A stretch of 32,000 nt of DNA. It comes from Desulfobulbus propionicus DSM 2032 (GTDB taxonomy: Bacteria; Desulfobacterota; Desulfobulbia; Desulfobulbales; Desulfobulbaceae). How positions within the stretch are numbered: position 1 is the stretch's first letter; every line of letters starts with the position of its first letter. The stretch covers positions 1,800,001 to 1,832,000 of the forward strand of contig NC_014972.1 of NCBI RefSeq assembly GCF_000186885.1, read 5' to 3'. Made by a program: the position numbers and the translations under genes. The notes beneath the pieces were generated by a model that was given only the letters and a program-made list of their open reading frames with translations, searched no databases and was not told where the DNA came from. Shown piece by piece: positions 5,776 through 31,185 of the stretch.

Positions 5776-6099
5776 ATCTTATTGTTTTACTCTTTTTTTA
5801 AAGATAGACGGGGCCGAGGTGCTTGCTGCGCGTGGAACATGGAGCGCAAAGCGCGCAGGAGTCCACCTTCGATCCCTCTTGCTTGCTGGGCAATTGTTTC
5901 AGACGATTCTGCCGGCTGACCGGCGCGCGGACCCTTGCCGCCCGTGCATCCCGGCAGGGACGTGGCGACCTTCCTTAAGGAGAGAAAAATAATAGTTGAT
6001 TTTTTCCAAGAGGTTACTGTACACCTGCTGTCTTAGTAATAAACAGGTAAAGCACCGGCTCTACCAGTGGGCTCCCAAAGTTTGACGGGGAGAATTCCC

Positions 6100-6237
6100 A
6101 TGTATGACGAACAGGGCCTAAGCCACACCAAGAAGGATTGCGAGTATCGTGTCGTATGGATACCAAAGTTTCGCAAGAATGCGATCTTCAATGACTTTAG
6201 TTTTCATAAACATGGAGATAGAGACAATTGTGAATGA
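6100..6237 (+). mobile_element. 5' remnant of an IS200/IS605-family tnpA (Y1 transposase) gene
   Basis: GGGGAG lies 8 nt before the ATG at 6100. The translation MYDEQGLSHTKKDCEYRVVWIPKFRKN matches the conserved TnpA N-terminus (SLxHTKWxCKYHxVFxPKYRR). Similarity is lost after about 27 aa, where the AT-rich DNA begins, and the frame stops at 6235-6237. Confidence 0.6.
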
Positions 6238-8715: not shown

Positions 8716-8726
8716 CGCCTGACCCG

Positions 8727-9731: not shown

Positions 9732-9778
9732 GTCCTTCCTGTTCTGTTCCCGGCTGGACTGCAAAATGCAGCCTGCAT

Positions 9779-10486
9779 TCAAATGCCGAGATAGGCTTGT
9801 TGTATGGCAGGATTGCCGAGCAGCGCCGCTGCCCGGTCCTGCATGACGATGCGGCCATTTTCCAGGACATAGCCCCGATCCGCCACTTGCAGGGCGAGAT
9901 TGGCGTTCTGTTCCACCAGGAAAATGGTCGTGTGGTGTTCCCTGTTGATCGTGGTGATAATGGTAAAAATTTGTTTGGTCACCAGGGGCGCCAGCCCCAT
10001 GGACGGCTCGTCGAGCAGCAGCAGTCTTGGCCGGGCCATGAGTGCCCGGCTGATGGCCAGCATCTGTTGCTCGCCGCCGGAGAGGGTGCCGCCCGGCTGG
10101 TGGCGCCGCTCGGCCAAAATCGGGAAGAGGCTGTAGCACATCTCCCGGTCCGCGGCGATCGCCTTGCTGTCCCGGCGGAGGAAGGCACCCATGTCGAGGT
10201 TTTCGGCCACGCTCAGCGCGGGAAAGATGTGCCGTCCCTCGGGAACCTGACAGATGCCCAGCCGGACGATCCCGTCCGGGGCCTTGCCAGTGATCGCTTG
10301 TCCTTCAAACACGATCTCGCCCCGCCGCACCGGCACGATGCCGCTGATGGCCATCAGGGTGGTGGACTTGCCCGCGCCGTTGGCACCGATCAAGGTGACG
10401 ATCTCGCCCTGGCTGACGGTGAGGCTCACGCCGTGCAGGGCCTGGATGCTGCCGTAGAATGCGTCGACCTCACGGAGCTCAAGCAT
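9779..10486 (-). CDS. livF: Branched-chain amino acid ABC transporter ATP-binding protein
   Basis: Walker A (GANGAGKST), the signature motif (LSGGEQQML) and Walker B (LLLLDEPS) are present. Length and position after livG are typical. Confidence 0.9.
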   Translation of the reverse strand: MLELREVDAFYGSIQALHGVSLTVSQGEIVTLIGANGAGKSTTLMAISGIVPVRRGEIVFEGQAITGKAPDGIVRLGICQVPEGRHIFPALSVAENLDMGAFLRRDSKAIAADREMCYSLFPILAERRHQPGGTLSGGEQQMLAISRALMARPRLLLLDEPSMGLAPLVTKQIFTIITTINREHHTTIFLVEQNANLALQVADRGYVLENGRIVMQDRAAALLGNPAIQQAYLGI

Positions 10487-11279
10487 GGATGCTTTCCTCG
10501 CCGAGATAGGCCCGGATCACCGCCGGGTTGTGCCGCACCTCCTCGGGCGAGCCCTCGGCGATCTTGCGGCCATAATCCAGGACAAAGATGTGGTCGGAGA
10601 GGCGCATCACCAGTTTCATGTCGTGCTCGATCAGCAAGATGGCCGTGCCATCGTCCCGAATCGAGCGAATCAGTTCGTTGAGTTCCAGTGTTTCCTGCGG
10701 GTTCATGCCGGCCGCCGGTTCGTCGAGCAACAGCAGCAGCGGCTCAGTGGCCAGGGCCCGACCGATCTCCAGCCGCCGCTGAGCCCCATAGGGCAGATGC
10801 TTGGCGAACTCGTCGGCCTGATCCGCCAGGTCGATCCGCTCCAGCAAAGCAAGGCTCATGCCAACAATGGCCTTTTCTTCGTGCCGCACCGCCGGCGGGC
10901 GGAAGATGGCCCCGAAGACCGTTGCATGGGTGCGGCAGTGGCGACCGATCATCACGTTCTCGAGCACGGTCATGTTGGGGAAAAGGCGGATGTTCTGGAA
11001 GGTGCGCGCCACTCCCTGCGCGGTGATCTGGTTGGGCTTGAGTCCATTCAACCGTTTGGGTGCTTGGCCGGGCGGAGTCAGCAGCAGTTCGCCGCCGGTG
11101 GGGGCGTAGATGCCGGTCAAGCAGTTGAACAAGGTGGTCTTGCCGGCGCCGTTGGGGCCGATCAGGGCCGCGATTTCTCCCGGATGGAGGCGGAGATCGA
11201 GATGATCCAGGGCACGGATGCCGCCGAAATCCATGGTCAGGCCGCTGACGGTGAGGAGTGGGTCCATGGGCTGTGTCAA
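10479..11279 (-). CDS. livG: Branched-chain amino acid ABC transporter ATP-binding protein
   Basis: GPNGAGKTTLFNCLTGIY, LPYGAQRRLEIGRAL and LLLLDEPAAG are present. It overlaps livF by 8 nt. Confidence 0.9.
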   Translation of the reverse strand: MTQPMDPLLTVSGLTMDFGGIRALDHLDLRLHPGEIAALIGPNGAGKTTLFNCLTGIYAPTGGELLLTPPGQAPKRLNGLKPNQITAQGVARTFQNIRLFPNMTVLENVMIGRHCRTHATVFGAIFRPPAVRHEEKAIVGMSLALLERIDLADQADEFAKHLPYGAQRRLEIGRALATEPLLLLLDEPAAGMNPQETLELNELIRSIRDDGTAILLIEHDMKLVMRLSDHIFVLDYGRKIAEGSPEEVRHNPAVIRAYLGEESIHA

Positions 11280-11291
11280 AAGTGCAACAAA

Positions 11292-12503
11292 TTATCGGTT
11301 GACTGTGTAGCTTCGGCGCACCGTGGCCACGATGCCCTGGGGCCGGAAGACCATCATCACCACCAGAACGGCGCCGAAGGCAAGCATGCGGTAGTCGGCC
11401 ACGGCACGCAGGTATTCGGGCAGGAGGATCAGCACCAGGGCGCCGACAATCACCCCGACGATCGAACCCATGCCGCCCAAGACCACGATGCAGAGGATGA
11501 TCGCCGACTCGAGAAAGGTGAAGCTGGCCGGGTTGACAAAGGTGGTCTTGGCAGCGAAAAAGACCCCGGCCATGCCCGCCCAGGTGGCCCCGAGGGCAAA
11601 GGCGGTCAACTTGGTCCGGGTCTTGTCGATGCCCATGGCCTGGCAGGCGATGTCATCCTCGCGCAGGGCGTACCAGGCCCGGCCGATGCGCGAGTTTTGC
11701 AGCCGATTGATCATGAAGATGGTGAACAGCACCATGAGGATCATTAGATAATACAAATAGATGATCGAGGCCTCCAGCGACAGCTCAATGCCGAACAGGC
11801 CAGGGCGGGGGATGTTGGCGATGCCGCTTGGGCCTTGGGAGAATTCGGTCCAGTTCTCCAGCACCAGGCGGATGATCTCGCCGAAACCGAGGGTGACGAT
11901 GGCCAGATAGTCGCCGCGCAACCGCAGCACCGGAAAGCCGAGCAGGATGCCGAACAGTGCGCCCAGCAGGCCGCCGATGGGCAGCACGGTCCAGAAGCCG
12001 AGGCCGAAATGGAGGTGGAGCAAGGCGTAGCTGTAGGCGCCGACCGCATAGAAGGCCACGTAGCCGAGGTCGAGCAGTCCGGCCACGCCGACCACGATGT
12101 TCAAACCCAGCCCCAGCACCACGTACATCAGGGCCGTGCTCATGATGTTGACCTGATAGGTGGAGAAGAGGGTGGGGAAGGCGAGGAAAAAGAGGGCGCC
12201 GATACCGAGCAGCGGAAGGGTGACGGCGCGTTGCGCCAGCAGACGCGGCAGCAGGGGAGGGGTCTCCTGCGCCAGGCCCAGGCGGATGCGTTCCCGACGG
12301 GCGGCGCGAAAGGCGAGAAGCAGGCGGGAAGCCACGAAGAGGCCAAAGCTCACCCCGCCGACCCAGGCCAGATTGGACCAGCGCCAGAGGATGCTCTTTT
12401 CCACCGGATTGACCTTGATCACCAGCAGGGGAAAGGTGAGAAACATGAACCACAGGGCTGTGAGCAGGGCCTGGCGGAAATCCTTGACAGTCAGCATGGG
12501 CAT
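11292..12503 (-). CDS. livM: Branched-chain amino acid ABC transporter permease (long LivM type)
   Basis: The protein is polytopic and hydrophobic, with LivM-type blocks (LDLGYVAFYAVGAY, FGEIIR) and an N-terminal extension. Confidence 0.85.
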   Translation of the reverse strand: MPMLTVKDFRQALLTALWFMFLTFPLLVIKVNPVEKSILWRWSNLAWVGGVSFGLFVASRLLLAFRAARRERIRLGLAQETPPLLPRLLAQRAVTLPLLGIGALFFLAFPTLFSTYQVNIMSTALMYVVLGLGLNIVVGVAGLLDLGYVAFYAVGAYSYALLHLHFGLGFWTVLPIGGLLGALFGILLGFPVLRLRGDYLAIVTLGFGEIIRLVLENWTEFSQGPSGIANIPRPGLFGIELSLEASIIYLYYLMILMVLFTIFMINRLQNSRIGRAWYALREDDIACQAMGIDKTRTKLTAFALGATWAGMAGVFFAAKTTFVNPASFTFLESAIILCIVVLGGMGSIVGVIVGALVLILLPEYLRAVADYRMLAFGAVLVVMMVFRPQGIVATVRRSYTVNR

Positions 12504-12510
12504 CGAACGG

Positions 12511-13413
12511 TTAGACTTTTTCCACTGCCGCCTTGCCGAGCAGTCCGGCAGGACGGAAGATCAGGATCAGCACCAGCAGGGAGAAGGCGAATACGTCCTC
12601 ATAGTCGCTGCTCACATAACCGGTGGCAAAGGCCTCGGTCAGGCCGAGGACAAAACTGCCCAGCACGGCACCGGGAATGGAGCCGATGCCACCGAGCACT
12701 GCGGCGGTAAAGGCCTTGATGCCGGCGAGGAAGCCGATAGAGAAGTTGATCTGGCCGATGTGCGAGGCAATGAGCAGACCACCGATGGCGGCCAGGGCCG
12801 AACCGAGGACAAAGGTGATCGAGATGATCCGGTCGACATTGATCCCGACCAGCAGCGCCATGGTGCGGTCTTGGGCCGTGGCGCGCATGGCCTTGCCGGT
12901 GCGGGTGCACTTGATCAGCACGGTCAGGAACAGCATGACCACGGCCGAGACCACCAGGATGGCCAGGTCGGTGGAGCCGATGATGGCGGCATAGGGCTCG
13001 AGCAAGGCAAAATCCGGAATCAGGGCCGGAAAGGGCAGGAAGTCCGAGGTCTGGGCCAGGAGGACATAATTCTGCAGGAAAATCGACATGCCGATGGCCG
13101 AGATCAAGGGCGACAAACGGGGGGCGTTGCGCAAGGGCCGGTAGGCCAGCCGCTCCACGGTGTAGCCGTAGGCCCCGGCCCAGACCACGGCCGCCAGCGC
13201 GGTCAGAACAAGGATGGCCGGCAGCGGCAGGCCGAGGATCGAGAAGACGGTCGAGGCGATCAGGGCGGTGAAGGCGCCGATCATGTAGATCTCGCCATGG
13301 GCGAAGTTGATCAGGCCGATGATGCCGTAGACCATGGTGTACCCCAGGGCGATCAGGGCGTAGATGGAACCCCGGGTCAGACCACTGAACAGCAGTTCGA
13401 TGAAGTAGTCCAT
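12511..13413 (-). CDS. livH: Branched-chain amino acid ABC transporter permease
   Basis: The translation starts MDYFIELLFSGLTRGSIYALIALGYTMVYG. GAGGA lies 6 nt upstream of the ATG at 13413. The ORF extension to 13512 is rejected. Confidence 0.9.
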   Translation of the reverse strand: MDYFIELLFSGLTRGSIYALIALGYTMVYGIIGLINFAHGEIYMIGAFTALIASTVFSILGLPLPAILVLTALAAVVWAGAYGYTVERLAYRPLRNAPRLSPLISAIGMSIFLQNYVLLAQTSDFLPFPALIPDFALLEPYAAIIGSTDLAILVVSAVVMLFLTVLIKCTRTGKAMRATAQDRTMALLVGINVDRIISITFVLGSALAAIGGLLIASHIGQINFSIGFLAGIKAFTAAVLGGIGSIPGAVLGSFVLGLTEAFATGYVSSDYEDVFAFSLLVLILIFRPAGLLGKAAVEKV

Positions 13414-13478
13414 GGAAATCCTCTTGCAAACGGGTCGGGCTTGAAGGGCGCGGCAACCCCAGCGGGCGCACAAAACAT

Positions 13479-13514
13479 CAATGCCTGGGACCGCAGCGGC
13501 GATTCCAGGCATTG
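13479..13514 (-). promoter_or_regulatory. Intercistronic hairpin between livK and livH
   Basis: A perfect 10-bp stem pairs CAATGCCTGG (13479-13488) with CCAGGCATTG (13505-13514) around a 16-nt loop. On the transcript it is followed by AUGUUUUG. Confidence 0.5.
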
Positions 13515-13535
13515 GCAGGTTGGCATGGGCGAGCG

Positions 13536-14660
13536 TTACTGGACTTGCACGTATTGGCCGTCCTTGACTTGATAGATGGAAAAGCCGATGCCGATCGGTT
13601 CGCCCTTGGCGTCGAACTTGATATGGCCAAACGGGGTGGCCACCTCCTCGCTGCGCAGCGCCTGGGCCACGGCCTCGGGATCGGTGGAGCCGGCCTTGGC
13701 CAGGGCATGGGTCAGGGCCAGGGTGGCGGCGATGGCGTTGTCGAAAAAGGCGCCGGGATCGGTACCCTCGGCCTGTTTGAATTTGGCGCGATACTCCTTG
13801 GTGATCGGATTCTGGGAGACGTCGGCCGGTCCGGTGGCGTAGACGCCCTCGGCATCCTTGCCCGCGACCTTGATGAAGGTGTCGTCCTTGACGCCGTCGT
13901 CGGAGACAAAGGGGATGGTCATCCGCTTCTGCCGCATCTGACCGACGACCTTGGAGGCCTCCGGATGGTAGCCGCCGAAGATGACCGCCTCCGCACCGGA
14001 GCGCTTGATCTTCTGCACCACCGCCGAATAGTCGACCGCGCCGGGCGTGACCCCTTCAAAGAGCACCACCTCGCCCTTGCCGCCGCTCTGCTCGATGAAG
14101 GTTTTGGCGTACTCGGCCAGCCCCTTGCCGTAGTCACCTTTATCGTGGATCACGGCAATTTTCTTCACTTTGAGGGTGCCTAGGGCGAAATCCACCTGGG
14201 AACGGGCCTGGGCGTCGTCACTGGCGATGGTGCGGTAGAAGTTGGGGTACTCGCCGCTCTGGGTGAGTCCGGGGGTGGTGGCCGAGGGAGAGATGACCGG
14301 CACCTTGGCGGCGCGGTAGATGGGCAGGGCGGCTTTGGTCGGACCGGAGCAGATATGGCCGATCACCGCCTTGGCGCCGTTGGAGATCAGTTTCGTGGCG
14401 GTGTTGGTGGCGATTTCCGGCTTGCACATGTCATCCTCGATCAGCAATTCCACCGGCGCGCCGTTGATGCCGCCTTTGGCGTTAATCTCTTTGACAACAA
14501 GTTGGGCAGCCTTTAAAGTCGGCAGGCCGTAGGAGGCCAGGTCGCCGCTGTGGGCGCCGGCCACGCCGATCTTGACCGCTTCGGCGGCCAGGGCATTGAC
14601 GCTCAGGCCAATGGCCAGGATACTAGCAGCAAACAGGGTGAAGGGTGGGACACAACGCAT
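13536..14660 (-). CDS. livK: Branched-chain amino acid ABC transporter substrate-binding protein
   Basis: A signal peptide (MRCVPPFTLFAASILAIGLSVNALAAEA) precedes the periplasmic-binding type I pattern (VKIGVAG...GHICSG). GGGAGG lies upstream of the ATG at 14660. An alternative ATG is at 14723. Confidence 0.85.
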   Translation of the reverse strand: MRCVPPFTLFAASILAIGLSVNALAAEAVKIGVAGAHSGDLASYGLPTLKAAQLVVKEINAKGGINGAPVELLIEDDMCKPEIATNTATKLISNGAKAVIGHICSGPTKAALPIYRAAKVPVISPSATTPGLTQSGEYPNFYRTIASDDAQARSQVDFALGTLKVKKIAVIHDKGDYGKGLAEYAKTFIEQSGGKGEVVLFEGVTPGAVDYSAVVQKIKRSGAEAVIFGGYHPEASKVVGQMRQKRMTIPFVSDDGVKDDTFIKVAGKDAEGVYATGPADVSQNPITKEYRAKFKQAEGTDPGAFFDNAIAATLALTHALAKAGSTDPEAVAQALRSEEVATPFGHIKFDAKGEPIGIGFSIYQVKDGQYVQVQ

Positions 14661-14891
14661 TGTGGAGACACCTCCCGGTCGGGTCAGGTTGCAAACGATC
14701 TTGTCTTTTTCGAGTGTGCCCATTTTTTACCCCATTGAGATAATTTTGCACTAAAAATGACCGGATGGCAGGTCTGGCGGACCGGCGCGCACCCTGCGGG
14801 AGGTTTGCCGCTTCGGTGCCACGGTGAAGGAGCCGTGGACCGCTTCCCCTATCTCCATCGTGGTCCGTCGACGGGAGCTGTTGTGCACGAC

Positions 14892-15968
14892 ATGAAGCAA
14901 TCAACCGCGTTTTATTTTGCCTTGGGCCGGCCATTGAGCCCGATCTACAGCCTGGCCATGCGCCTGCGCGAGACCCTCTACCGTCGGGGCGTGCTCCGCT
15001 CTTACCGGCTGGCCGCACCGGTGGTCAGCGTCGGTAACCTGACCTTGGGCGGCAGCGGCAAGACGCCGATGGTTCAGTACCTGGCCCGGCTGCTGCAAGA
15101 CAACGGCTTCCACCCGGCGATCATCAGCCGCGGCTACGGCGGACGGGCGAAAGGCGCCATCAACGTGGTGTCCGACGACAAGAGTCTGCTGCTCGATGCC
15201 GAGCAGGCCGGCGACGAACCGCGTTTTTTGGCCGAAACCCTGCCGGGCGTACCGGTGCTGACCGGTATTGTCCGCCGGCTGCCGGCCCAGCGTGCCGTGG
15301 AGATGGGAGCCGATGTCCTGTTGCTGGACGACGGTTTTCAGCATCTGCAAATCAAGCGCGATGTCAACCTGGTGCTGTTCAACACCGACCGGCTGGCCGG
15401 CAACTCGCGGGTCTTCCCCGGCGGCGACCTGCGTGAACCAGTGGCCGCGCTCAAACGGGCCACCGGTTTTGTCATGACCGGCGTCCATGCCGGTAACCGG
15501 GAACGGGCCGACCGGTTCGCCGACCTGCTGCGCCATCGCTTTCCCGGTATTCCGGTCGTCCAAGCCGGGTATGGGGTGGAAGGGCCGGTGCGGCTCGCCG
15601 CCTCGGGCATTCTTGAACCGGCAGCCGCCGACATTCTGGTCCAGCACCCTTTATTTGCCTTTTGTGGCATCGCCCACCCCGAATCCTTCCGCCAGACGCT
15701 CATCGCACAGGGGGCGGTGCTGGCCGGTTTTCATCCCCTGGACGACCACCAGCGCTATTCGTCGGCCGTGATCGAGCGGCTGGCCAATCGCGCCCGTCAA
15801 TCCGGCGCCCAGAACCTGATCACCACCGAAAAGGATCTGGTCAAGCTGGCTCCCCATGTCGAGGCCCTGTCCCTGCCTGTGTTCGGGTTGCGGATGCGGG
15901 TGGAGGCAGAGGAGCCGTTAGCGCGGAACATCCTTTCGGCGGTCCGTTCCTGGAGCGGCCACGATTGA
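14892..15968 (+). CDS. lpxK: Tetraacyldisaccharide 4'-kinase
   Basis: The P-loop VVSVGNLTLGGSGKTP, ISRGYGG and LLDDGFQH are present. I prefer the ATG at 14892 (MKQSTAFYF) over the 14757 ORF start. Confidence 0.85.
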   Translation: MKQSTAFYFALGRPLSPIYSLAMRLRETLYRRGVLRSYRLAAPVVSVGNLTLGGSGKTPMVQYLARLLQDNGFHPAIISRGYGGRAKGAINVVSDDKSLLLDAEQAGDEPRFLAETLPGVPVLTGIVRRLPAQRAVEMGADVLLLDDGFQHLQIKRDVNLVLFNTDRLAGNSRVFPGGDLREPVAALKRATGFVMTGVHAGNRERADRFADLLRHRFPGIPVVQAGYGVEGPVRLAASGILEPAAADILVQHPLFAFCGIAHPESFRQTLIAQGAVLAGFHPLDDHQRYSSAVIERLANRARQSGAQNLITTEKDLVKLAPHVEALSLPVFGLRMRVEAEEPLARNILSAVRSWSGHD

Positions 15969-15997
15969 TCCCTCTTGCCAACTGTGTAAAAAAAACA

Positions 15998-16033
15998 ACA
16001 TTCGCCCGGAGTTGTCCGGAATGTGTTTTTTTT
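15998..16033 (+). terminator. Rho-independent terminator after lpxK
   Basis: ACATTCGCCCGG-AGTTGT-CCGGAATGT forms a stem with a small bulge, followed by a T8 run at 16026-16033. An A-run lies upstream, so it may act bidirectionally. Confidence 0.6.
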
Positions 16034-16097
16034 GCCACATCTGTGTCGAGGCCCCTGGGCCATCAATCTGCTACTTCTGCGGTCTATTTTTTTGATT

Positions 16098-16106
16098 TGG
16101 TATAAT
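16098..16106 (+). promoter_or_regulatory. Candidate extended -10 promoter element upstream of lpxC
   Basis: TGGTATAAT (TGnTATAAT) lies within the 255-nt AT-rich spacer, about 120 nt upstream of the lpxC ATG. No convincing -35 element was found. Confidence 0.3.
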
Positions 16107-16224
16107 TTTTTGAATTTTGTACCACCATGTAATATTTGTCGACCAGTTGGATCGCAATTTGCATAGTTTATAGATATATAGACAATATTGCCCTCTTCTT
16201 TCACAGAGTTTACAGTAGGTCACC

Positions 16225-17220
16225 ATGGCATCTCACATAGAGCCGCATCAATATACAGTAAAACGAACCGTCAGTTGCTGCGGTGTTGGACTGCACACCG
16301 GACGCACCGTCAACCTGACCATCAGTCCCGCGCCGGCGAACAGCGGCATCCAGTTCGTCCGTTCCGATCTGGCCGGCCGACCCACCATTCCAGCCCGGGT
16401 TGAACGGGTGGTGGATACCACCTTGGCCACCACCATCGGCGACGGACGCAATAAGATTTCCACCACCGAGCACCTGATGGCCGCCCTGCGCGGCTGCGGC
16501 ATCGACAATGCGGTGATCGACCTCGATTCCCACGAGGTGCCGATCATGGATGGCAGCGCCGGACCCTTTACCCGCTTGCTCAAGACCGCCGGTTTGCATC
16601 GCCAGCAGGCCCTGCGCAAAATGCTACGCATCACCCGGCCGCTCAGCTATGTCGACGGCAACAAATCGATCCGTATCGAACCCTATGACGGGTTCAAGGT
16701 ATCGGGACGCATTCAGTTCGACGACGCCCTGATCAGCGAGCAGCGCTACTCGGTGGAGGTCAACCCCGAGCGGTTCACCAAGGAGATCGCCTCGGCCCGC
16801 ACCTTTGGCTTTGTCGAGCAGGTGGAACAATTGTGGCAAAATGGACTCGCCCTTGGCGGCACCCTGGACAACGTCATCGCCATTCACTGGAACCGGCGTT
16901 CGATTCTGAACGAAGATGGTCTGCGGTTCGACGACGAATTCATCCGCCACAAGGTGTTGGACGTGATCGGCGACATCGCCCTGCTCGGTTCGCCGGTGCT
17001 TGGCCATGTGATTGCTGATCGGTCCGGACACAGTCTGCATTTGGGACTGATGCGCACCATCATCGACAACCCCCACAGTTGGGAGTATGTCACCTTCCAG
17101 AAACGAGGCGAGTCCCTGTTGCGCCAGGTAGTGCAGTCCACCCAGAATTCTGGGCACCGGTTCGCCCCTTTCTTTGCCCCGGTCAACGAGTCGTTGCCTC
17201 AGCAGGCCTGCGCGATGTAA
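16225..17220 (+). CDS. lpxC: UDP-3-O-acyl-N-acetylglucosamine deacetylase
   Basis: TVKRTVSCCGVGLHTGRTVNLTISPAPANSGIQF, TTEHLMAAL and HKVLDVIGD are present. The product is 331 aa with a short C-terminal extension. Confidence 0.9.
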   Translation: MASHIEPHQYTVKRTVSCCGVGLHTGRTVNLTISPAPANSGIQFVRSDLAGRPTIPARVERVVDTTLATTIGDGRNKISTTEHLMAALRGCGIDNAVIDLDSHEVPIMDGSAGPFTRLLKTAGLHRQQALRKMLRITRPLSYVDGNKSIRIEPYDGFKVSGRIQFDDALISEQRYSVEVNPERFTKEIASARTFGFVEQVEQLWQNGLALGGTLDNVIAIHWNRRSILNEDGLRFDDEFIRHKVLDVIGDIALLGSPVLGHVIADRSGHSLHLGLMRTIIDNPHSWEYVTFQKRGESLLRQVVQSTQNSGHRFAPFFAPVNESLPQQACAM

Positions 17221-23077: not shown

Positions 23078-24313
23078 TTACGGAAACAGCGGCTGATTGA
23101 AGGGGCCAAAGCCGCTGAGGCAGTCATCCTCCACCTGCTGAGCGATCTGGGTTCCCCAGACCGAAGAGTACTCGGGATCGAAATAGACCAGCTCCACGGT
23201 TTCACGGATGTGTTCGATGCCGATCCGACCGCCTTGGCTGTTTTCGTAGCGCAGCAAGGCTTGCTCCGCAGCCTGGGGTGTTTCGCCGTCATCCCGCATC
23301 CAGGCCGTGGTGGTGAACATCTCGCCGACTGTGCGGCACAGGGATTCCCGGCCGCTTGGCCCGGCCGGTTTCGTTTCCTGGAGAGATGGGGCCTGAAGGG
23401 CCGCAGAGGACGGTTGGCACCGACCCCAGATCACCCCCGATCCGGTCGTGGCGGAATCGCCGGGTGTCATGCACCAACCGAGATCCTGCAACCGCTGAGC
23501 GTTGACCCGCATCTGCCGGCAAGCGTCGTCAGCCGCCGGTCCGACCGTGTCCCAGCACAGGTGGGTCAGATCCTGGTCACGGTCGATCAGCGCCTGAATC
23601 TCGGGGCTGATGGCCACGATGCGCGCCGAATCCTCGCCGGGAGATGGCGCGGGTGCTGCTTGCCAGCCGCCGCTGGAACCAACGGCTTGCGCGCTCGGTG
23701 AACCTGGCGGCGCCTGCGGTGGAGCATCCTCCTGCGGCAACGAGGCCCGGTCGAGCGCTGTTTCCTGCTCTTCCGGGCGTTCCGTTTGCCGTGTATCCGC
23801 CTCCCCGGGTTGCTCGGTCCGGGCTTGCGGGGGCGCAACGGCGGCAACCGGCTTTTTCGCCTTCATGAACAGAAAACCGGATTCCGATCCTTTGTTGTAG
23901 GACAGGACAATACTGCTGATGTCCCCGGTCCAGCTGTACATTTCCTCGCCATTTTGCTCGATTTTCTTGCGGTCGCCGAAACGGGCAAAAGCCTCGGTCT
24001 TCATCGCGGCAAAATTTTTGTTTCCGGCAAAAAGCAGGATCACGCCCTGCAACCGCTGGTGCGTGAAGGTGCAGGAGATGCCGCTGAGGGTAGCCTTGCC
24101 AAAGCGCAGGTCCTCGTTTTGCAGGGCATAGAGGGTCTCGCCATTGGCGTCGGTTTCCTTGGTGAGAACCAGCTGTTTCGTCCGTTGCAGGTCGTTGAGC
24201 GCGCTGCCCCAGCGCATGCCCTTGAATCCATCGACATCGGCCAGGGCCGCGAGGGATGTCACGGACACGATCAGACCAAGAAGAACAAGAGACAGCGTGC
24301 GGAAACAATTCAT
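23078..24313 (-). CDS. Secreted hypothetical protein with a Pro/Ala/Gln-rich linker
   Basis: A signal peptide is present (MNCFRTLSLVLLGLIVSVTSLAALA). It is followed by a domain of about 130 aa, an acidic low-complexity linker of about 70 aa rich in P/A/Q/E, and a Cys-containing C-terminal region. No family was recognised. Confidence 0.6.
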   Translation of the reverse strand: MNCFRTLSLVLLGLIVSVTSLAALADVDGFKGMRWGSALNDLQRTKQLVLTKETDANGETLYALQNEDLRFGKATLSGISCTFTHQRLQGVILLFAGNKNFAAMKTEAFARFGDRKKIEQNGEEMYSWTGDISSIVLSYNKGSESGFLFMKAKKPVAAVAPPQARTEQPGEADTRQTERPEEQETALDRASLPQEDAPPQAPPGSPSAQAVGSSGGWQAAPAPSPGEDSARIVAISPEIQALIDRDQDLTHLCWDTVGPAADDACRQMRVNAQRLQDLGWCMTPGDSATTGSGVIWGRCQPSSAALQAPSLQETKPAGPSGRESLCRTVGEMFTTTAWMRDDGETPQAAEQALLRYENSQGGRIGIEHIRETVELVYFDPEYSSVWGTQIAQQVEDDCLSGFGPFNQPLFP

Positions 24314-24335
24314 GATCTCTATCCCAGCCGCATTG

Positions 24336-25046
24336 TCAGCGGCGGCGGCCGTCTTTACTGGCGCGAATGCTTGGAGTGACGATCAGGGCGATCCGTTCGC
24401 TGGCCGCCTTGGACAGGTGCGGGTACTGCTCGCGCAGCCAGACCAGAATACTCGCCTTGTGGGTCGCGGCCGTCGCCGGTTCTGCCCCCGCGAACAGGGC
24501 GGCCCAGCAGGCATTAGCCGCCTGGAGTTCCTGGGCGAAACAGGGATGATCGGGTGTGTTGCCCAGCGCCTCCCCCCTGATTGCCGGCTGGTGGTCGGTT
24601 AAATCGGTCGCGGCCGTACTCCGCGGTTCGATGCGGTGGGTGGTTTCGTGGTTGATCACCTCGTTGAGCCGCGCAAAAAGGCGCATCGGGTTGAGCGCGA
24701 GCATGCTGGTTTCACCCCATTCCTCGCCGACCGAATTGCTGACCGCGATCTCCTTGCCTTTGTCGTCCACGCAAAGAATTTCGGCACCAATCAGCATGCG
24801 GTCAAGGCGCCCTTGCACCTGCCGCAGCACTTCGTGTTGAAGCCGCATTTCGACCTGGGCGCTGGGTTGCGGCGCGGCCGGTTTCTTTTTCTTGCCACCA
24901 TCTCGTTTCTCGATAAACACATCGAAAAATTCGATCCACAGATCTATTGTGCCGGCCAGAGCCATTTCCACAATCTGCTCCGCGCTTGTCCGCCACCGGG
25001 CACGCAGGTCACCGAGATACACACGCTGATTTTCCGGGGTTGTCAT
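24336..25046 (-). CDS. Hypothetical cytoplasmic protein with a Lys-rich linker
   Basis: 236 aa with no signal peptide. A KRDGGKKKKPAAPQP linker is present. AAAGGA lies 7 nt upstream of the ATG. The gene ends 22 nt upstream of the 23078-24313 gene on the same strand. No family was recognised. Confidence 0.55.
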   Translation of the reverse strand: MTTPENQRVYLGDLRARWRTSAEQIVEMALAGTIDLWIEFFDVFIEKRDGGKKKKPAAPQPSAQVEMRLQHEVLRQVQGRLDRMLIGAEILCVDDKGKEIAVSNSVGEEWGETSMLALNPMRLFARLNEVINHETTHRIEPRSTAATDLTDHQPAIRGEALGNTPDHPCFAQELQAANACWAALFAGAEPATAATHKASILVWLREQYPHLSKAASERIALIVTPSIRASKDGRRR

Positions 25047-25357
25047 ACCAAATCCTTTTGTTTGTCAATTGGTTGTACCATGACGTAATCGCACCCACCC
25101 GCCGGTTCTGCTCGAAACGTCCTCGCGGACATGCCCAACAGGGCACCACCAAATCGCTCTCTTGGCCAACCCGGGAAATGGGTTCCATTTTTTTCGCATC
25201 GCCTGCCAGGTCAGGCTCGGAGCGGCCGGCAGCACGCAATTCATCAAGGTAGCAAGATCGGGTAGGGAAGGGCAACTAAAATCCTTTGTGCTCCCCCGGT
25301 GGCGGTGCGCTCCTGTTTCGACGCGGTTGGTTGTCGACCAGGGGGGCAGGATGCGGG

Positions 25358-25816
25358 TCAGTTTGGCCGTAGGTCGAGTTGGATGTAGTTGAGGTCCAGT
25401 TGGTCTCCACCCTCGCCACCTACCTCGATCAGCAGACGATCCTGGGTTTCGACAAAGGCAAAGGGTCGGTGGCCATTGGCCTCCAAGACATCCAAGAACA
25501 GGGGATAGAAAAAATCGTTGGTCTGCCCTTGGGGATCATAGGCAAACCGTACGCCGAAGACCGGATATTGACCCTCCCGGCACAGTTGAACCCATTGCAG
25601 TTCGGTTTTTGGCCGCTGACGCACTATTTCCAGGGCAGGCGATTTCCAGGCGCGTGCATCCACGGGGTGACAATCGCGGCCGAGCTGCTGGCTGAGGTCG
25701 AGAGGCGGCTCGGCGCTGGCTGCAAGGGAGGGCAATACCACAAGCAGCAGGAGCAGCAGCGATGTCTTGGCGTCTGGGCATCGTCTATTCAGCAGGGATC
25801 TGGCCGACAAAAACAT
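25358..25816 (-). CDS. Small secreted hypothetical protein directly downstream of the autotransporter
   Basis: GAGAGGA lies 5-6 nt upstream of the ATG at 25816. The signal peptide is MFLSARSLLNRRCPDAKTSLLLLLLVVLPSLAASA. The mature part is about 117 aa. No family was recognised. Confidence 0.55.
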   Translation of the reverse strand: MFLSARSLLNRRCPDAKTSLLLLLLVVLPSLAASAEPPLDLSQQLGRDCHPVDARAWKSPALEIVRQRPKTELQWVQLCREGQYPVFGVRFAYDPQGQTNDFFYPLFLDVLEANGHRPFAFVETQDRLLIEVGGEGGDQLDLNYIQLDLRPN

Positions 25817-25964
25817 GGGGGTTCCTCTCGAAAAAACGGTTGATGGGACCCTGCCGCCACAGCGACCCACCCCAGGATGGGTCTGCTTTCAGGCATTGGG
25901 CAGGGCGTGTTTGCCAGGGGCGTCTTTCCGTTACCCTGTTTGGCGGGTTCGGACAAGCTGGAAA

Positions 25965-28900
25965 TCAAAAGGTCCAAGCGAGGCGCAGGGAGAGGGCATG
26001 GTCGGTGGCACCGTTGTCGCTTTGCAGGGTGCAGTCGTAGCCAAGATGGGCGAATGCGCTTGGCGAGAGGCGGGCCTCGAGCGCGGCGCCCATGACCAGG
26101 CTGTCACCGGCCAGGTCGCGTCCGGGCGTAAGGAACATATCGCCGCCGCCAGCCAGTTGGGACTGCAGATCGTCGCTGTGGCGGTTGAACTCATGCCACC
26201 AGTGCAGCCTGAGTTCCGGTTCCAGGGCAAAGGTCTTCCATTGGAAGGGATAGGCGATCCGGGCGCCGGCAAAGCCGAGCAGGGAATCGCTCGCCCGGGA
26301 GCCTAGGGAGAGATCGGCGCTGTCGGCGCCGGATTCCTGGAAGCCTTCCTCGTCGAGCCTCACCCAGCCGCCACCCACGGAAGGCCCCAGGATCCAGTTG
26401 CCGATCACCCAGTCGTAGCCGCCCTGGACAGTGGCGCCGAACAGGCGGCCCTCGTGGTCGCTGTGGGTTGCACGGCCGGCAAAGGCCAGTGACCGGTCGG
26501 CGTCGAAGTCGATCAGGCCGGTGCCGAGCGCGGCGCCCAACCGCCAGCCCCCCGGGGTCAGGGGATCGTTCCAGGAACCGTAGAGATAGGCGTGCAGACT
26601 TTTGTTTTCCCCTTCGTCGGCACTGCTGTCGGATTCGTAGCGGCTCTCGCCGAGGGCGCCGGCCATGCCCAGGATCAGGCCATCGGCCGTGGAGCGCTCC
26701 AGGCCGAACAGCAGGCCGTAAACGTTCTTTGTCGCCCCGAAAGAGGCATCGTCCGCTTCGTACCGGCTGTGATGGCTGGGGAACTCGAACCAGGCAGTGG
26801 TCGCACCCGCACGGTCGCTGCTCTCCGGCGACGGATCGAAGTGCTCCATGCGGCGGCGCAGGCTGTCGAAACGGGACTGGGCATCGTCGAGGGCCAGGGT
26901 GGTGGCCAGGCCGTGAATGCGCGGGGTCATCTCGGCCAACGCGTTGTTGAGGGCGCTGGTGGTCAAGGCCAGGTCGAGGCGGTCAAGCAGGTCGGCGAAA
27001 TCGTTGGCCGCCGAGGGGCGAACCCTATCCAGGCTGGTTGCCAAGCCGCTGTTATGCGGGATGGCCAGGCTGGTGTAGCTGTTGCGGCTGACCTCCAGGC
27101 TCAGGTTGCCGGGCGAGAGGCTCAGCAGCTCGGTGTCGAGAATGGCGGCGCCTTGCACCCGGTCAAAGACACCGGAGATGCTGCCGGCATCGAGCATGGA
27201 GAAGCTGCCGCCGTTGGTGTAGCCGTTCGGGACGAGAAGCAGGGTCCCGTCGAGCGAGGCGGTGCCGGTGACGGTGAAACGGTCGGCTTGATCGGCACCG
27301 ATTTCCATACCCAGGGTGGCGGAGGAACTCTGGGTATAGTTGCCGTCGATGGTCAGATGGCCGATGGAATGGCCGGGAGACACGGTGCCCCGGTTGGTGA
27401 CGTTGCCGGTCAAGGTGCCGTTGCCGCCCAGGATGCCGTGCGCGCCGACAGTGGTCTCGCCGCCGATGACGCCGTCGATCCCCAGTCGTCCGTGCTCGAC
27501 CTGGATCGCACCAAAGGTGGAATGGCCGGAGAGCGACCAGTCCACCCCGTGCATGACCAAGGTTTCGGCGCCATAGAAGACCTCATTTTCCATGCCATTG
27601 CCATTGAGCAACACCACGTCGGTCTCCCCTGCCATCCACGCCGGCCCAACCAGGTCCGAACCGCTTTGCAGGATGAGACGGGTGGTATCGTAGCTGGCAA
27701 TGGAGGCGTTGTAACCGCTGATCGTGCCGCTGTTGATGATGACCGAGGGGGTGTTCGCCCAGACACCAACACCGCCCTGATAATCGAGCAGGGGCTGCAC
27801 AGAGGAAGCGACCGCGGTGATGGTGCCGCTGTTTTCCAGCCATCCTGGACCCTTGATGAAGGCGACGCCGATTGCCCAATCACCGGAGACCGCGGAAATG
27901 CTGCCCGAATTGGTTACCTGCGTGCGTCCATGGTTTTCCGACCATATCCCGGCGCTTCCCTTGAGCGTGTCCGCTCCTGTTTGGGCCACGATCTCGCCGC
28001 TGTTCTCGATGACCAAATCGTTCTTGCCGTTACTGGCCCATATGCCATAGGAGAGGGTGAAATTGGCATCACTGTCGGCCTCGGCCGTTACTGTTCCCTG
28101 GTTGACGATTTCCCCTCCTTGCAGGCAGATCCCATAGGCAACAGCCTGTCCTTGCGGGCTGAAAGCCGATGCGGTGATCAGTCCTTCATTGCGGACAGAA
28201 CCGCCGGGCCCGCCCCAGAGATAGATTCCGCGCGCCGTTGTCAGCGCCTCGTCCGACTGGGCATGGGCGCCAATCGTGCCCTGGTTGACGACGCTGCTGG
28301 CCTTTCCGCCCCAAAAATCGACGCCATGAGCATTGTAGGTTCCTCCAGCGCTCCAGGGAACCGCCTGGATATCGCCGGTGTTGACGAGGTGCAGACTCTC
28401 GCCGCTCCAGGGTTCCGCGATAAGATAGAAGCTCCAAAGGTTGGACATCGAGGTTGTGTAGCGAAGACGCATGTAGCCGTCCTCTCCCCATTCCTCGCTC
28501 CAGGAATTGCGCAGTATCCAGTAGCCTAGCCCATCTTCTCCGGTCTCGTCATTGTAGCCGATCAATGCCACCGCATGATCCAGGGCTGCTATGTTCACCT
28601 GCGTGGGGACGCGAAAATTGTCGTTGAGGACACCCCCCTGGTAGTCATGCCATTCCTCCCTGTCGGAATTCACGCCAATGGTGACCGCACCGATGGCATG
28701 GAGAACGCGGCGGGTGGTCTCCACGTCATTGACCGGTATGGAATACCAATCCTCCATCGTATAACGCGGGGCATCCCAATGCTGTCCGGCAGGCTGTTCA
28801 ATGACCGTCCACTGATCCTCCTGCACTGGATAGGGATAGACGCTTTCCAAGGGCGTTCCATGTTCCACCATGGCGGTCATCGGATCTTCAAGCAGACCGC

Positions 28901-29195
28901 CATCACAGCCATCCATTCCGTCATACAGGGGGCTGAGACTCCAGACCATGAAGGCCTCGGACAGATCGATGGCCTGCTGGTCGTACAGACCGTGCGTCCG
29001 GTTCCAGGTGCTTTCCGCTGCGGCCAGCGTACCAAAGGCATAACAGCTGCCGCAGTAGGCCTGATCGCGCACGGCACCGATGAAGCTGTGACCGTCGATG
29101 TCGCGCAGGTCAAAGGAAGAAGGAAGATCCATGGCCAGTCCCGGCATCGGAGCCAGGAGCACGGTGGTCAATGAAGCATACAGTGTCAAATTCAT
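25965..29195 (-). CDS. Type Va autotransporter with an N-terminal papain-like (peptidase C1) cysteine protease passenger
   Basis: A signal peptide is present (MNLTLYASLTTVLLAPMPGLA). C1 catalytic motifs are intact: VRDQAYCGSCYAF (Cys codon at 29043-29045), LDHAVALIGY and ILRNSWSEEWGEDGYMRL. A passenger of about 450 aa follows with periodic NxGxI...GI repeats typical of a beta-helix. The C-terminal beta-barrel domain of about 280 aa ends LSLRLAWTF. Confidence 0.85.
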   Translation of the reverse strand: MNLTLYASLTTVLLAPMPGLAMDLPSSFDLRDIDGHSFIGAVRDQAYCGSCYAFGTLAAAESTWNRTHGLYDQQAIDLSEAFMVWSLSPLYDGMDGCDGGLLEDPMTAMVEHGTPLESVYPYPVQEDQWTVIEQPAGQHWDAPRYTMEDWYSIPVNDVETTRRVLHAIGAVTIGVNSDREEWHDYQGGVLNDNFRVPTQVNIAALDHAVALIGYNDETGEDGLGYWILRNSWSEEWGEDGYMRLRYTTSMSNLWSFYLIAEPWSGESLHLVNTGDIQAVPWSAGGTYNAHGVDFWGGKASSVVNQGTIGAHAQSDEALTTARGIYLWGGPGGSVRNEGLITASAFSPQGQAVAYGICLQGGEIVNQGTVTAEADSDANFTLSYGIWASNGKNDLVIENSGEIVAQTGADTLKGSAGIWSENHGRTQVTNSGSISAVSGDWAIGVAFIKGPGWLENSGTITAVASSVQPLLDYQGGVGVWANTPSVIINSGTISGYNASIASYDTTRLILQSGSDLVGPAWMAGETDVVLLNGNGMENEVFYGAETLVMHGVDWSLSGHSTFGAIQVEHGRLGIDGVIGGETTVGAHGILGGNGTLTGNVTNRGTVSPGHSIGHLTIDGNYTQSSSATLGMEIGADQADRFTVTGTASLDGTLLLVPNGYTNGGSFSMLDAGSISGVFDRVQGAAILDTELLSLSPGNLSLEVSRNSYTSLAIPHNSGLATSLDRVRPSAANDFADLLDRLDLALTTSALNNALAEMTPRIHGLATTLALDDAQSRFDSLRRRMEHFDPSPESSDRAGATTAWFEFPSHHSRYEADDASFGATKNVYGLLFGLERSTADGLILGMAGALGESRYESDSSADEGENKSLHAYLYGSWNDPLTPGGWRLGAALGTGLIDFDADRSLAFAGRATHSDHEGRLFGATVQGGYDWVIGNWILGPSVGGGWVRLDEEGFQESGADSADLSLGSRASDSLLGFAGARIAYPFQWKTFALEPELRLHWWHEFNRHSDDLQSQLAGGGDMFLTPGRDLAGDSLVMGAALEARLSPSAFAHLGYDCTLQSDNGATDHALSLRLAWTF

Positions 29196-29317
29196 GGTGT
29201 TTTTGTTCCCGTGATGAAGTGTTTGCCGCGTGCAGCGGTGGACGTGGACCGCGGGCATGATCGCTGTCGAGACGTCTTGGTCGTGATGAGGCAAGGTGTC
29301 CGGGTAACGGCGTTTTC

Positions 29318-29340
29318 AGGGGAGGGGGAGGAGGGGAGAA
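29318..29340. repeat. Pure polypurine/polypyrimidine tract in the autotransporter leader
   Basis: The plus strand reads AGGGGAGGGGGAGGAGGGGAGAA. The transcript therefore carries UUCUCCCCUCCUCCCCCUCCCCU, between the aptamer and the start codon. Confidence 0.7.
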
Positions 29341-29359
29341 CGAGACATGAGGAGAATAC

Positions 29360-29445
29360 GCATGCCGCAGTCCCGCTACCATAGTTTCCCGTAGGCCGGA
29401 GACTTTGCGCCCATACCTTTCGGTATGTTTGCCCAGTTATCAAGA
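29360..29445 (-). promoter_or_regulatory. c-di-GMP-I (GEMM-I) type riboswitch aptamer
   Basis: The minus strand reads CUGGGCAAAC-AUACC-GAAA-GGUAU-GGGCGCAAAGUCUCCGG-CCUACG-G-GAAA-C-UAUGG-UAGCGGGACUGCGGC. The conserved blocks GGGCAAAC, GCGCAAAG, CUCCGGCCUA and GGUAGCGGG match the Vibrio cholerae Vc2 aptamer as I recall it. P2 is a 5-bp stem capped by a GAAA tetraloop (29413-29426). P3 contains an 11-nt-type GAAA tetraloop receptor, CCUACG...UAUGG (29379-29395). Confidence 0.8.
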
Positions 29446-29474
29446 TTCCTATCACAGCAGAAAGGCAATGTCAA
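29446..29474 (-). promoter_or_regulatory. Candidate sigma70-type promoter driving the riboswitch and autotransporter
   Basis: On the minus strand: TTGACA (29469-29474), a 17-nt spacer, then TAGGAA (29446-29451). This places the predicted start a few nt before the aptamer. Confidence 0.4.
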
Positions 29475-29542
29475 AACGATCGGCGTGCAATGGGTGCGAG
29501 GAGGGACGGGATTTTTCTGCCCGGGAAGGGGGGAATCAAGGT

Positions 29543-29578
29543 AAAAAAATGCCCGACAGCCGAAAAGCACTGTCGGGC
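29543..29578 (-). terminator. Rho-independent terminator of the hsp20 operon
   Basis: GCCCGACAG (29551-29559) pairs with CTGTCGGGC (29570-29578) in a perfect 9-bp stem with a 10-nt loop. On the minus strand it is followed by AUUUUUUU (29543-29550). Confidence 0.8.
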
Positions 29579-29612: not shown

Positions 29613-30188
29613 TTAACTTCCAGAGGTGATCTCCACCTTCTTGACCTCTCCCTTTGGCATGGCCTTGCGAGGCATGGTGACGAACAGCACGCCGTTCTTG
29701 AAGCTGGCCTTGATGTTATCCTGATCCACGTCCTCGGGCAGGGACAGTACCCGCTGGAACGAGCCGTAACTGCGCTCGATCCGGTAGTAGTTCTTCTCCT
29801 TGTCTTCTTTTTCCTGTTTCTTTTCGCCCCTGATGGTCAGGGCGCCGGCGGCGATATCCACGGACACATCCTTTTCGCTCACTCCGGGGATCTCGACGGT
29901 GAGTTGATACTCACTGTCGGTGGCGCTCAGATCGACCTTGGGTTTGAGTACTGCCGTGCCCTCAAAGGCGGGAAAAGCGCCGAAACCGCCAACGGCGGGC
30001 AGATTGAAGCCGCGGAAAAATTGATCGAACAGTCGATCGATGTCGCGGTGAATTTGTACCATTGGATCACCGTGCCGTTGTGGATAAAAGGGGGCCTTGT
30101 GTTCGTGTTTCACCGGCACGGTATGCTCGATTTCCTCTTCGTTCTTGAACCAATTCCAGGGGGCCAGTTTTTTCAGTTCCATGGTCAT
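29613..30188 (-). CDS. Hsp20/alpha-crystallin family small heat shock protein (long form)
   Basis: The alpha-crystallin domain is present (YQLTVEIPGVSEKDVSVDI...LTIRGEKK...ERSYGSFQRVLSLPEDVD...ASFKNGVLFVTMPR). The start is 30188 or the ATG at 30182, which has better spacing to GAGGAG. Confidence 0.85.
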   Translation of the reverse strand: MTMELKKLAPWNWFKNEEEIEHTVPVKHEHKAPFYPQRHGDPMVQIHRDIDRLFDQFFRGFNLPAVGGFGAFPAFEGTAVLKPKVDLSATDSEYQLTVEIPGVSEKDVSVDIAAGALTIRGEKKQEKEDKEKNYYRIERSYGSFQRVLSLPEDVDQDNIKASFKNGVLFVTMPRKAMPKGEVKKVEITSGS

Positions 30189-30664: not shown

Positions 30665-31111
30665 TCAATTGATACTGATCTGTCGTGGTTTGGCGGCTTC
30701 CGACTTGGGGAGGGTCATTTTGAGCAAGCCATCCTTCAAGGTGGCTTCCACTTTGGAAGCATCTACCTCGTAGGGCAGGGTGAAGCTACGGGAAAAGGAT
30801 CCTGTCCCCCGTTCGGTGCGATGGATTTTAAAGGTGTCGGGGGTGTCCGATTTGCGCGCTCCGCTGATTTCCAGATAGTTGCCCTGAATCTTGACCTGCA
30901 GATCCTCTTTCAGCACTCCGGGCAGTTCAACGACGATTTCCAGATTATCGCCGGTATCGCTGAGATTGGTGCGCGGAAAGGTATCAGCGGCAACCCATCC
31001 CTGGCCGAGATTGTAGGCCCGGTCGAACTCATTGAATACGTTGTTCATCCGGTTGCGGAACAGATCCATGGCCCCCATCATCTGATGAATGTCATTCCAT
31101 CGGGTAATCAT
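30665..31111 (-). CDS. Hsp20/alpha-crystallin family small heat shock protein
   Basis: LEIVVELPGVLKEDLQVKI...FSRSFTLPYEVD...ATLKDGLLKMTLPKSEAAKPRQISI is present. AGGAGG lies 6-7 nt upstream of the ATG at 31111. The 31156 ORF start is rejected. Confidence 0.85.
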   Translation of the reverse strand: MITRWNDIHQMMGAMDLFRNRMNNVFNEFDRAYNLGQGWVAADTFPRTNLSDTGDNLEIVVELPGVLKEDLQVKIQGNYLEISGARKSDTPDTFKIHRTERGTGSFSRSFTLPYEVDASKVEATLKDGLLKMTLPKSEAAKPRQISIN

Positions 31112-31185
31112 CTTGTCTCCTCCTTTTCGTGAGTGTGTAGGGTATGTTCCGATCATGCATGACCCCGTCTTTGTGTTGTAGTTGA

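Follow-up and report, generated by a model that had tools for sequence, protein, structure and literature searches.

A predicted papain-family cysteine-protease autotransporter in Desulfobulbus propionicus and its relatives among environmental anaerobes

The autotransporter gene and the architecture of its product

A 32,000-nucleotide stretch of the Desulfobulbus propionicus DSM 2032 genome (RefSeq assembly GCF_000186885.1, contig NC_014972.1, positions 1,800,001 to 1,832,000 of the forward strand; hereafter the window, from whose first letter all positions are counted) carries on its minus strand a complete gene for a 1076-residue protein that combines a papain-family (C1) cysteine peptidase with an autotransporter (25965-29195, from the open reading frame (ORF) list and its translation). 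The stop codon occupies 25965-25967 and the product ends in ...LRLAWTF*. The maximal ORF begins with a TTG (25965-29294), but the ATG at 29195, which opens the reading MNLTLYASL..., is favoured as the start because the leaders of homologues are uniformly 20-25 residues long ahead of LPSSFDLR; the upstream TTG at 29294 and an ATG at ~29258 were rejected for the same reason. In all 78 family members a hydrophobic leader of this length directly precedes LPSSFDLR, in the form LPSSFDLRDIDG. A first-pass annotation of the window had already placed the gene at these coordinates, which stand, without stating the strand, which is minus. That 25965-29195 is a real and intact cysteine-protease autotransporter gene is well supported.

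The product can be divided into a predicted signal peptide (residues 1-21, MNLTLYASLTTVLLAPMPGLA; 29133-29195), a C1A peptidase domain without a propeptide (residues 22-262; 28410-29132), a β-helix passenger stalk (residues 263-706; 27078-28409), an α-helical linker region (residues 707-798; 26802-27077) and a 12-stranded type Va translocator barrel (residues 799-1076; 25968-26801), all on the minus strand. The signal peptide is assigned from hydrophobicity, a modelled helix and homologue leaders, with cleavage predicted after GLA. The peptidase domain is delimited by Pfam, phmmer and Foldseek, the stalk by motif spacing, AlphaFold2 and Foldseek, the linker by AlphaFold2 secondary structure and structural alignment, and the barrel by PF03797, AlphaFold2 and Foldseek. 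The order of predicted signal peptide, peptidase, β-helix and barrel proposed in the first-pass annotation is thus borne out by profile hidden Markov models (HMMs), invariant catalytic residues, structure prediction and structural comparison.

A full-length AlphaFold2 model built from the 78-sequence family alignment had a mean predicted local distance difference test (pLDDT) score of 90.7 and a predicted template modelling (pTM) score of 0.75. It comprises a leader helix (residues 3-13), an α+β C1 domain (residues 22-262) whose helix 51-67 begins at Cys51, an all-β solenoid with three strands per rung (residues 265-705), a helical region (residues 707-795) and 12 long strands (residues 799-1075).

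The stalk contains eight copies of an Nx Gx[IVL] motif between residues 272 and 488, spaced 26-33 residues apart with a mean of ~31, rather than the ~25 residues estimated at first. Modelled alone it is all β (pLDDT 95.4, pTM 0.93), and its best Foldseek matches in the PDB are autotransporter passengers, headed by Ssp (8e7f, E 3.4e-6) and including pertactin (1dab), Ag43, UpaB, IgA1 protease, EspP, Hbp, Hap and C-terminal or autochaperone fragments of IcsA. Beyond the rungs, the C-terminal end of the stalk appears to form a cap similar to an autochaperone region, an assignment that is structural only (IcsA autochaperone region 3ml3, TMt 0.53, E 1.2). A single-sequence search of the PDB with the stalk and barrel returned no matches, and no Pfam PATR or Pertactin model matched the protein at E<=0.1, so that of the repeat and translocator families named for checking at the outset the Autotransporter family was recovered and PATR and Pertactin were not.

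Pfam PF03797 (Autotransporter) matches residues 802-1054 (E 2.6e-47; score 162 bits, cutoff 26), the barrel retrieves EstA (3kvn, E 1.8e-16) and AaaA (9oqa) from the PDB, and linker and barrel together superpose on EstA and AaaA over ~350 columns. In the model a long helix (residues 759-784) lies directly before strand 1 and probably runs through the barrel pore. The protein ends in an aromatic β-signal (...LSLRLAWTF), whose terminal Phe is kept in at least 90% of family members. As modelled, the protein therefore has the barrel, linker and β-signal of a classical type Va autotransporter.

A papain-type peptidase head with invariant catalytic residues

Pfam PF00112 (Peptidase_C1) matches residues 24-249 (E 2.5e-39; score 136 bits, cutoff 20.7), while the C1B-type model PF03051 stays below threshold (E 0.096); the two profile matches on which the first-pass annotation had staked its case, Peptidase_C1 and Autotransporter, both lie far above their gathering cutoffs. 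The closest PDB sequences found by phmmer are fibroinase, dipeptidyl peptidase I (DPPI) and cathepsins (E ~1e-21), and the modelled domain superposes on cathepsins S, L and K with template modelling (TM) scores of 0.87-0.88 and root-mean-square deviations of 2.3-2.8 Å. Insertions at residues ~120-150 and 190-205 are modelled with lower confidence.

The catalytic motifs are as first quoted: Gln45 and Cys51, separated by five residues, in VRDQAYCGSCYAF; His207 in LDHAVALIGY; and Asn230-Ser231-Trp232 in ILRNSWSEEWGEDGY. These residues align with papain Q19, C25, H159, N175 and W177, and with their counterparts in fibroinase and DPPI from the PDB search. The codons of Gln45 (29061-29063), Cys51 (29043-29045), His207 (28575-28577) and Asn230 (28506-28508), all on the minus strand, were verified individually. 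Superposition at a TM score of 0.88, taken with the sequence alignment, points to a Cys-His-Asn triad of papain geometry.

Q45, C51, H207, N230, S231, W232 and W236 are invariant in 78 of 78 family clusters spanning 26-91% identity, and no part of the protein is better conserved than the C1 domain, where the mean majority fraction is 0.67 (0.45-0.55 elsewhere). Such conservation speaks strongly for an active enzyme and against a pseudoprotease. Neither an occluding loop nor a mini-chain or exclusion domain was seen in the C1 domain, which suggests that the head is an endopeptidase.

Absence of a propeptide and loss of cysteines

The mature-type N-terminus LPSSFDLR begins at residue 24, immediately after the leader, leaving no room for a pro-segment. 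The absence of a propeptide, already remarked upon in the first-pass annotation for this one protein, extends across the family: the C1 domain is preceded by a median of 22 residues in 79 autotransporter members, compared with 114 in the 40 nearest non-autotransporter relatives. In an index-free sample of 89 non-autotransporter matches the median was 99, with at least 60 residues in 83 of the 89. The extension of these relatives consists either of a conserved segment (FExxDTLEEIRxKIxxNGYxFxVxxNWV...EEK..FFSRR) or of a region containing DUF333. In P0079-P0114 the former takes the shape of an N-terminal segment of ~80 residues that belongs to no Pfam family and may be an undescribed bacterial C1A prodomain, judging from its position and conservation; the Bacteroidota versions of the non-autotransporter peptidases have DUF333 at the start and a type IX secretion system (T9SS) sorting domain at the end.

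The autotransporter heads are also poor in cysteine, with a median of 3 (range 1-4) in the C1 domain vs 11 in the non-autotransporter relatives. Pairwise alignment shows that eight cysteines of the non-autotransporter relative P0079 are substituted in the window protein, where only C48 and C97 (equivalent to papain C22-C63) are found besides the catalytic Cys51; the papain-type disulfides C56-C95 and C153-C200 are absent. The Cys48-Cys97 span lies at 28905-29054 on the minus strand (Cys48 codon 29052-29054, Cys97 codon 28905-28907). The two positions covary perfectly, both being Cys in 48 members and both non-Cys in 30 (n=78), a classic disulfide signature at the sequence level that would correspond to one retained pair of the papain type. 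Autotransporter passenger domains are reported to be generally cysteine-poor and to tolerate only short disulfide loops (PMC9769942 and references therein). Sequence comparison thus presents a C1 cargo that looks adapted to type Va export, having lost both its N-terminal extension and most of its cysteines.

The first-pass annotation had asked how such a protease could be held in check on its way through the periplasm. Type Va passengers are kept unfolded in the periplasm and fold at the cell surface from the C-terminus, and the serine-protease passengers of the SPATEs (serine protease autotransporters of Enterobacteriaceae) do without a propeptide too. That none is present here is thus to be expected and poses no paradox; standard autotransporter biology accounts for most of the supposed puzzle of restraint. 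In C1A enzymes the prodomain normally assists folding, the I29-type zymogen being typical of C1A though not universal. A better question is how a papain fold is reached without a prodomain and with at most one disulfide.

Distribution and origin of the family

Homologues were sought in two ways. A word-indexed search of 5.8 billion protein clusters recovered ~78 clusters (90% identity) with full PF00112 and PF03797 domains, at 26-91% identity and 97-100% query coverage, and an index-free search of 1.84 billion representatives at 50% identity recovered ~20-30 full-length representatives. The family occurs in Desulfobacterota, Planctomycetota and Verrucomicrobiota. Relatives in metagenome-assembled genomes (MAGs) are affiliated to Pelobacter/Syntrophotalea/Desulfuromonadales, Syntrophaceae, Desulfobacteraceae, Desulfovibrionales, Desulfonatronovibrio, Phycisphaerales/Planctomycetota and Verrucomicrobiota/Opitutales. 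The hosts are free-living anaerobes of sediment, sludge or soda lakes and are mostly known from MAGs.

One full-length member (51% identity) comes from a contig of 1.76 Mb that bears the label of a Pedobacter sp. MAG (L007, JBFWJC010000001.1). Pedobacter would be an unexpected host for a type Va autotransporter of this clade. The flanks of this locus look like those of the Pelobacter/Desulfuromonadales loci L004 and L016, so that the contig may have been mislabelled.

In a neighbour-joining tree of 119 C1 domains, computed without support values from a biased sample, the autotransporter heads, 79 in number, group in a single clade that includes no non-autotransporter sequence. When the stalk and barrel were used as the query, scores were 326 bits or more for family members and did not exceed 145 bits for the next autotransporters, which include PATR-repeat proteins, a few S8 proteases and one metallophosphatase. 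A domain swap that recently placed a C1 head on an S8-type chassis is unsupported, since the heads are monophyletic and close non-C1 relatives of the stalk and barrel are lacking. The same two observations indicate, as far as sequence comparison can, that head, stalk and barrel evolved together as one lineage that has spread across phyla, rather than through a recent shuffle.

A few proteins of 685-752 residues (P0154, P0155 and P0158, the last on a 919-kb contig) carry the family-specific stalk and barrel (35-53% identity) and no C1 domain. They may be head-less derivatives or N-terminally truncated gene calls.

Genomic context

The autotransporter gene is directly preceded by a tandem pair of Hsp20/alpha-crystallin genes (29613-30188 and 30665-31156, both minus strand), and a strong intrinsic terminator on the same strand, with a hairpin and T-run (29578-29551), stands between them and it. 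The intergenic region that follows this terminator (29196-29550, minus strand) presumably holds the promoter and 5' untranslated region of the autotransporter gene; no match to the sigma-70 consensus was found there. Three minus-strand ORFs lie downstream (23078-25870), encoding proteins of 411, 236 and, for a secreted product, 152 residues, with no Pfam match. The last is the first downstream of the autotransporter gene (25361-25816, minus strand, ATG at 25816) and has a good ribosome-binding site, GAGAGGAA. It was considered as a periplasmic inhibitor and rejected, having no Pfam match and not being conserved next to autotransporter homologues.

All ORFs of at least 80 residues from 26 family loci and the window were clustered to compare neighbours. 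No conserved partner, whether inhibitor, chaperone or second protease, was found across these 26 loci and the window, and sharing of neighbours was limited to a few closely related loci. The neighbours of the 91%-identical homologue P0001 differ from those in the window and include an HD-domain protein and an alpha/beta-hydrolase. The C1 autotransporter is a stand-alone gene.

Elsewhere in the window, lipid A genes are distributed over 7513-17220: lpxB (7513-8730, minus strand), lpxK (14757-15968, plus strand) and lpxC (16225-17220, plus strand). Among them lies a Liv-type ATP-binding cassette transporter for branched-chain amino acids (10479-14723, minus strand) with a binding protein, two permeases and an ATPase. 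A low-GC islet next to lpxB (6001-7006, GC 0.30 vs ~0.62 elsewhere) contains an ORF of 285 residues (6149-7006, plus strand) whose matches are to NKWYS (capsular polysaccharide) and sulfotransferase-like entries, and was probably acquired horizontally.

Proposed mechanism and alternative explanations

We propose, with a probability of roughly 0.8, that the protein is a classical type Va protease autotransporter and that an active cysteine endopeptidase of the papain family is its effector, a reading drawn from sequence and structural models. The precursor would be exported by Sec and its 21-residue leader removed. As is established for the type Va route, the passenger would then cross the periplasm unfolded and chaperone-bound, so that an inhibitory propeptide would be unneeded. 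The β-barrel assembly machinery (BAM) would recognise the terminal ...AWTF and insert the 12-strand barrel, through which the passenger would be threaded C-terminus first. The β-helix stalk would fold first at the surface and provide a platform for the C1 domain, the last part to emerge. Comparison with the non-autotransporter relatives suggests that the lineage adapted its cargo to this route by dropping the N-terminal extension and replacing the disulfide cysteines, all but one pair here and all of them in many members. The enzyme would act at the cell surface, or in the medium if the linker is cleaved, and would degrade extracellular or surface proteins, most likely to obtain peptides and amino acids or to remodel the surface, while the anoxic and reducing habitats suggested by host taxonomy would keep its exposed catalytic thiol reduced.

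Several observations sit less comfortably with this proposal. The n-region of the signal peptide has no basic residue (no Lys or Arg); P0001 begins MKLPLY. C48 and C97 are 49 residues apart, compared with the ~11-residue loops common in passengers, and if oxidised in the periplasm the pair might hinder export. In the non-autotransporter relatives the extension gives no match to I29 in Pfam; by its position and conservation it is a putative prodomain. The physiological role, be it peptide and amino-acid acquisition or surface remodelling and processing, is a guess from host ecology.

The alternatives differ mainly in what the head is taken to do. It could be chiefly a maturation protease that cuts its own linker, releasing or trimming the passenger, or processes surface proteins, instead of being broadly nutritional; such a role would parallel that of the subtilisin-type autotransporters NalP and SphB1, which are maturation proteases. 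The similarity of stalk and barrel to subtilase autotransporters (Ssp 8e7f as top match, EprS as a partial match) is in keeping with this, as is the length of the linker (~90 residues with several helices), in which L722, D723, R726, D741 and P758 are conserved. However, no partner or substrate gene is conserved next to the family loci and no cleavage site is identifiable from sequence, and we regard such a primary function as unlikely, if by no means far-fetched; it is in any case compatible with the proposed cysteine-endopeptidase autotransporter and does not exclude it. An offensive effector directed against competing microbes or a eukaryotic host, in the manner of SPATE virulence or antagonism factors, would fit the observation that virulence factors make up most of the characterised protease autotransporters (PMC5767081, PMC9289746), but the hosts are free-living anaerobes of sediment, sludge and soda lakes and no immunity-like or inhibitor-like neighbour is conserved over the 26 loci and the window, which makes this role improbable.

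Since many β-helix autotransporters are adhesins and the stalk matches include Ag43, pertactin and UpaB, the passenger might instead be an adhesin or structural surface protein bearing the C1 domain as a dead binding module. This is very hard to reconcile with the invariance of Q45, C51, H207, N230 and W232 in 78 of 78 clusters down to 26% identity, or with the fact that the C1 domain is the most conserved region and superposes on active cathepsins (TM 0.88). An artefactual fusion, produced by mis-assembly or by a read-through gene call that merges a C1 peptidase gene with an autotransporter gene, is favoured by nothing beyond the rarity of the architecture and has a negligible probability. 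The frame is uninterrupted over 1076 codons and AlphaFold2 models one continuous confident chain. The occurrence of the identical protein on a 3.85-Mb contig and in several independent assemblies, together with the same collinear architecture in ~78 clusters from independent samples and several phyla, already refutes it.

A bolder extension of the proposed type Va cysteine-endopeptidase reading, which we put forward tentatively and consider rather doubtful, is that the papain fold can be both folded and regulated without prodomain and disulfides because the type Va route replaces their two functions, unfolded transit serving as the 'inhibitor' and the folded β-helix as scaffold or foldase. With its exposed thiol the enzyme would then be a surface protease gated by redox conditions and working only where these are anoxic or sulfidic, which, if true, would explain the confinement of the family to anaerobes.

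Previous reports and significance

The description of papain-fold passengers in the first-pass annotation as at best rarely described proved fair, with two passing mentions found. A 2018 census of type Va secretion systems lists 'cysteine peptidase C1 (IPR025660)' among the protease autotransporters (PMC5767081), and the Pelobacter carbinolicus genome paper predicts a cysteine peptidase in the passenger of Pcar_0046 (PMC3543383). Each devotes one sentence to the subject and gives nothing on catalytic residues, pro-segment, cysteine loss, structure or distribution. Two large autotransporter surveys contain nothing specific on papain or cysteine-protease autotransporters (PMC3419190, PMC9289746), and a study of C1A evolution sets multidomain bacterial forms aside and does not discuss C1 autotransporters (PMC10380794). 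Our literature search found no experimental characterisation of any C1 autotransporter. The domain combination itself is thus already on record; what is new is the loss of the N-terminal extension, the loss of cysteines, the one covarying disulfide and the restriction to anaerobes.

To our knowledge, work on protease autotransporters has until now dealt with the serine or metallo enzymes of pathogens. The C1 autotransporter family represents a cysteine-protease counterpart in environmental anaerobes, and the presence of a member in the cultured D. propionicus makes it directly testable. The family also constitutes a natural experiment in cargo adaptation, in which the same catalytic clade occurs with or without an N-terminal extension and with ~11 or 1-3 cysteines according to export route (type Va barrel vs others, e.g. 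T9SS). It may be of use in understanding prodomain-independent C1A folding and in designing autotransporter display of disulfide-rich cargo. Ecologically, the protein is a candidate cell-surface protease for protein breakdown in anoxic sediments and sludge.

Comparison with known systems

The nearest described counterpart is Pcar_0046 of P. carbinolicus, which has the same domain combination by its published description; relatives from Pelobacter, Syntrophotalea and Desulfuromonadales share 47-53% identity with the window protein. Among characterised proteins, Ssp of Serratia marcescens (PDB 8e7f) and EprS of Pseudomonas aeruginosa have the same layout of N-terminal protease head, β-rich stalk, helical linker and 12-strand barrel, but their head is an S8 subtilase, whereas that of the window protein is a papain-fold cysteine peptidase. 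In sequence, its stalk and barrel bear little resemblance to those of any S8 autotransporter (<= ~90 bits). The NCBIfam EprS model NF051851 matches residues 550-1076 only (E 7.7e-31) and, with 107 bits against a cutoff of 1700, the window protein is not an EprS equivalog.

The SPATEs (S6 peptidases: EspP, Hbp and Pet) likewise carry an N-terminal protease on a long β-helix and lack a propeptide, and by analogy activity would arise in both only after folding at the surface. The window protein differs from them in catalytic class and fold, in its environmental anaerobe hosts as opposed to Enterobacteriaceae and in having no extended signal peptide, and it has no Peptidase_S6 match in Pfam or NCBIfam.

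The non-autotransporter C1A relatives, among them P0079 and P0096, share 34-42% identity with it across the catalytic domain, and the motifs CGSCYAFG, NHA..LVGW and WILRNSWG..WGE.GYM are common to the C1 autotransporters and their non-autotransporter relatives. P0079 carries PEGA domains, while P0096 carries DUF333, fn3, GEVED and a T9SS sorting domain. In contrast to the autotransporters, these relatives have 70-150 extra residues between signal peptide and catalytic domain and ~11 cysteines within it, and they end in PEGA, BACON, fn3/GEVED, FG-GAP or a T9SS C-terminal domain instead of a β-helix and barrel.

Papain and cathepsins L, S and K have their fold (TM 0.87-0.88) and catalytic machinery in common with the window protein, whose sequence accordingly places it in C1A in all respects but the zymogen prodomain and two of the three canonical disulfides. 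Unlike these enzymes, it has no I29 prodomain, retains one of the three canonical disulfides and is tethered at the C-terminus of its peptidase domain to a β-helix.

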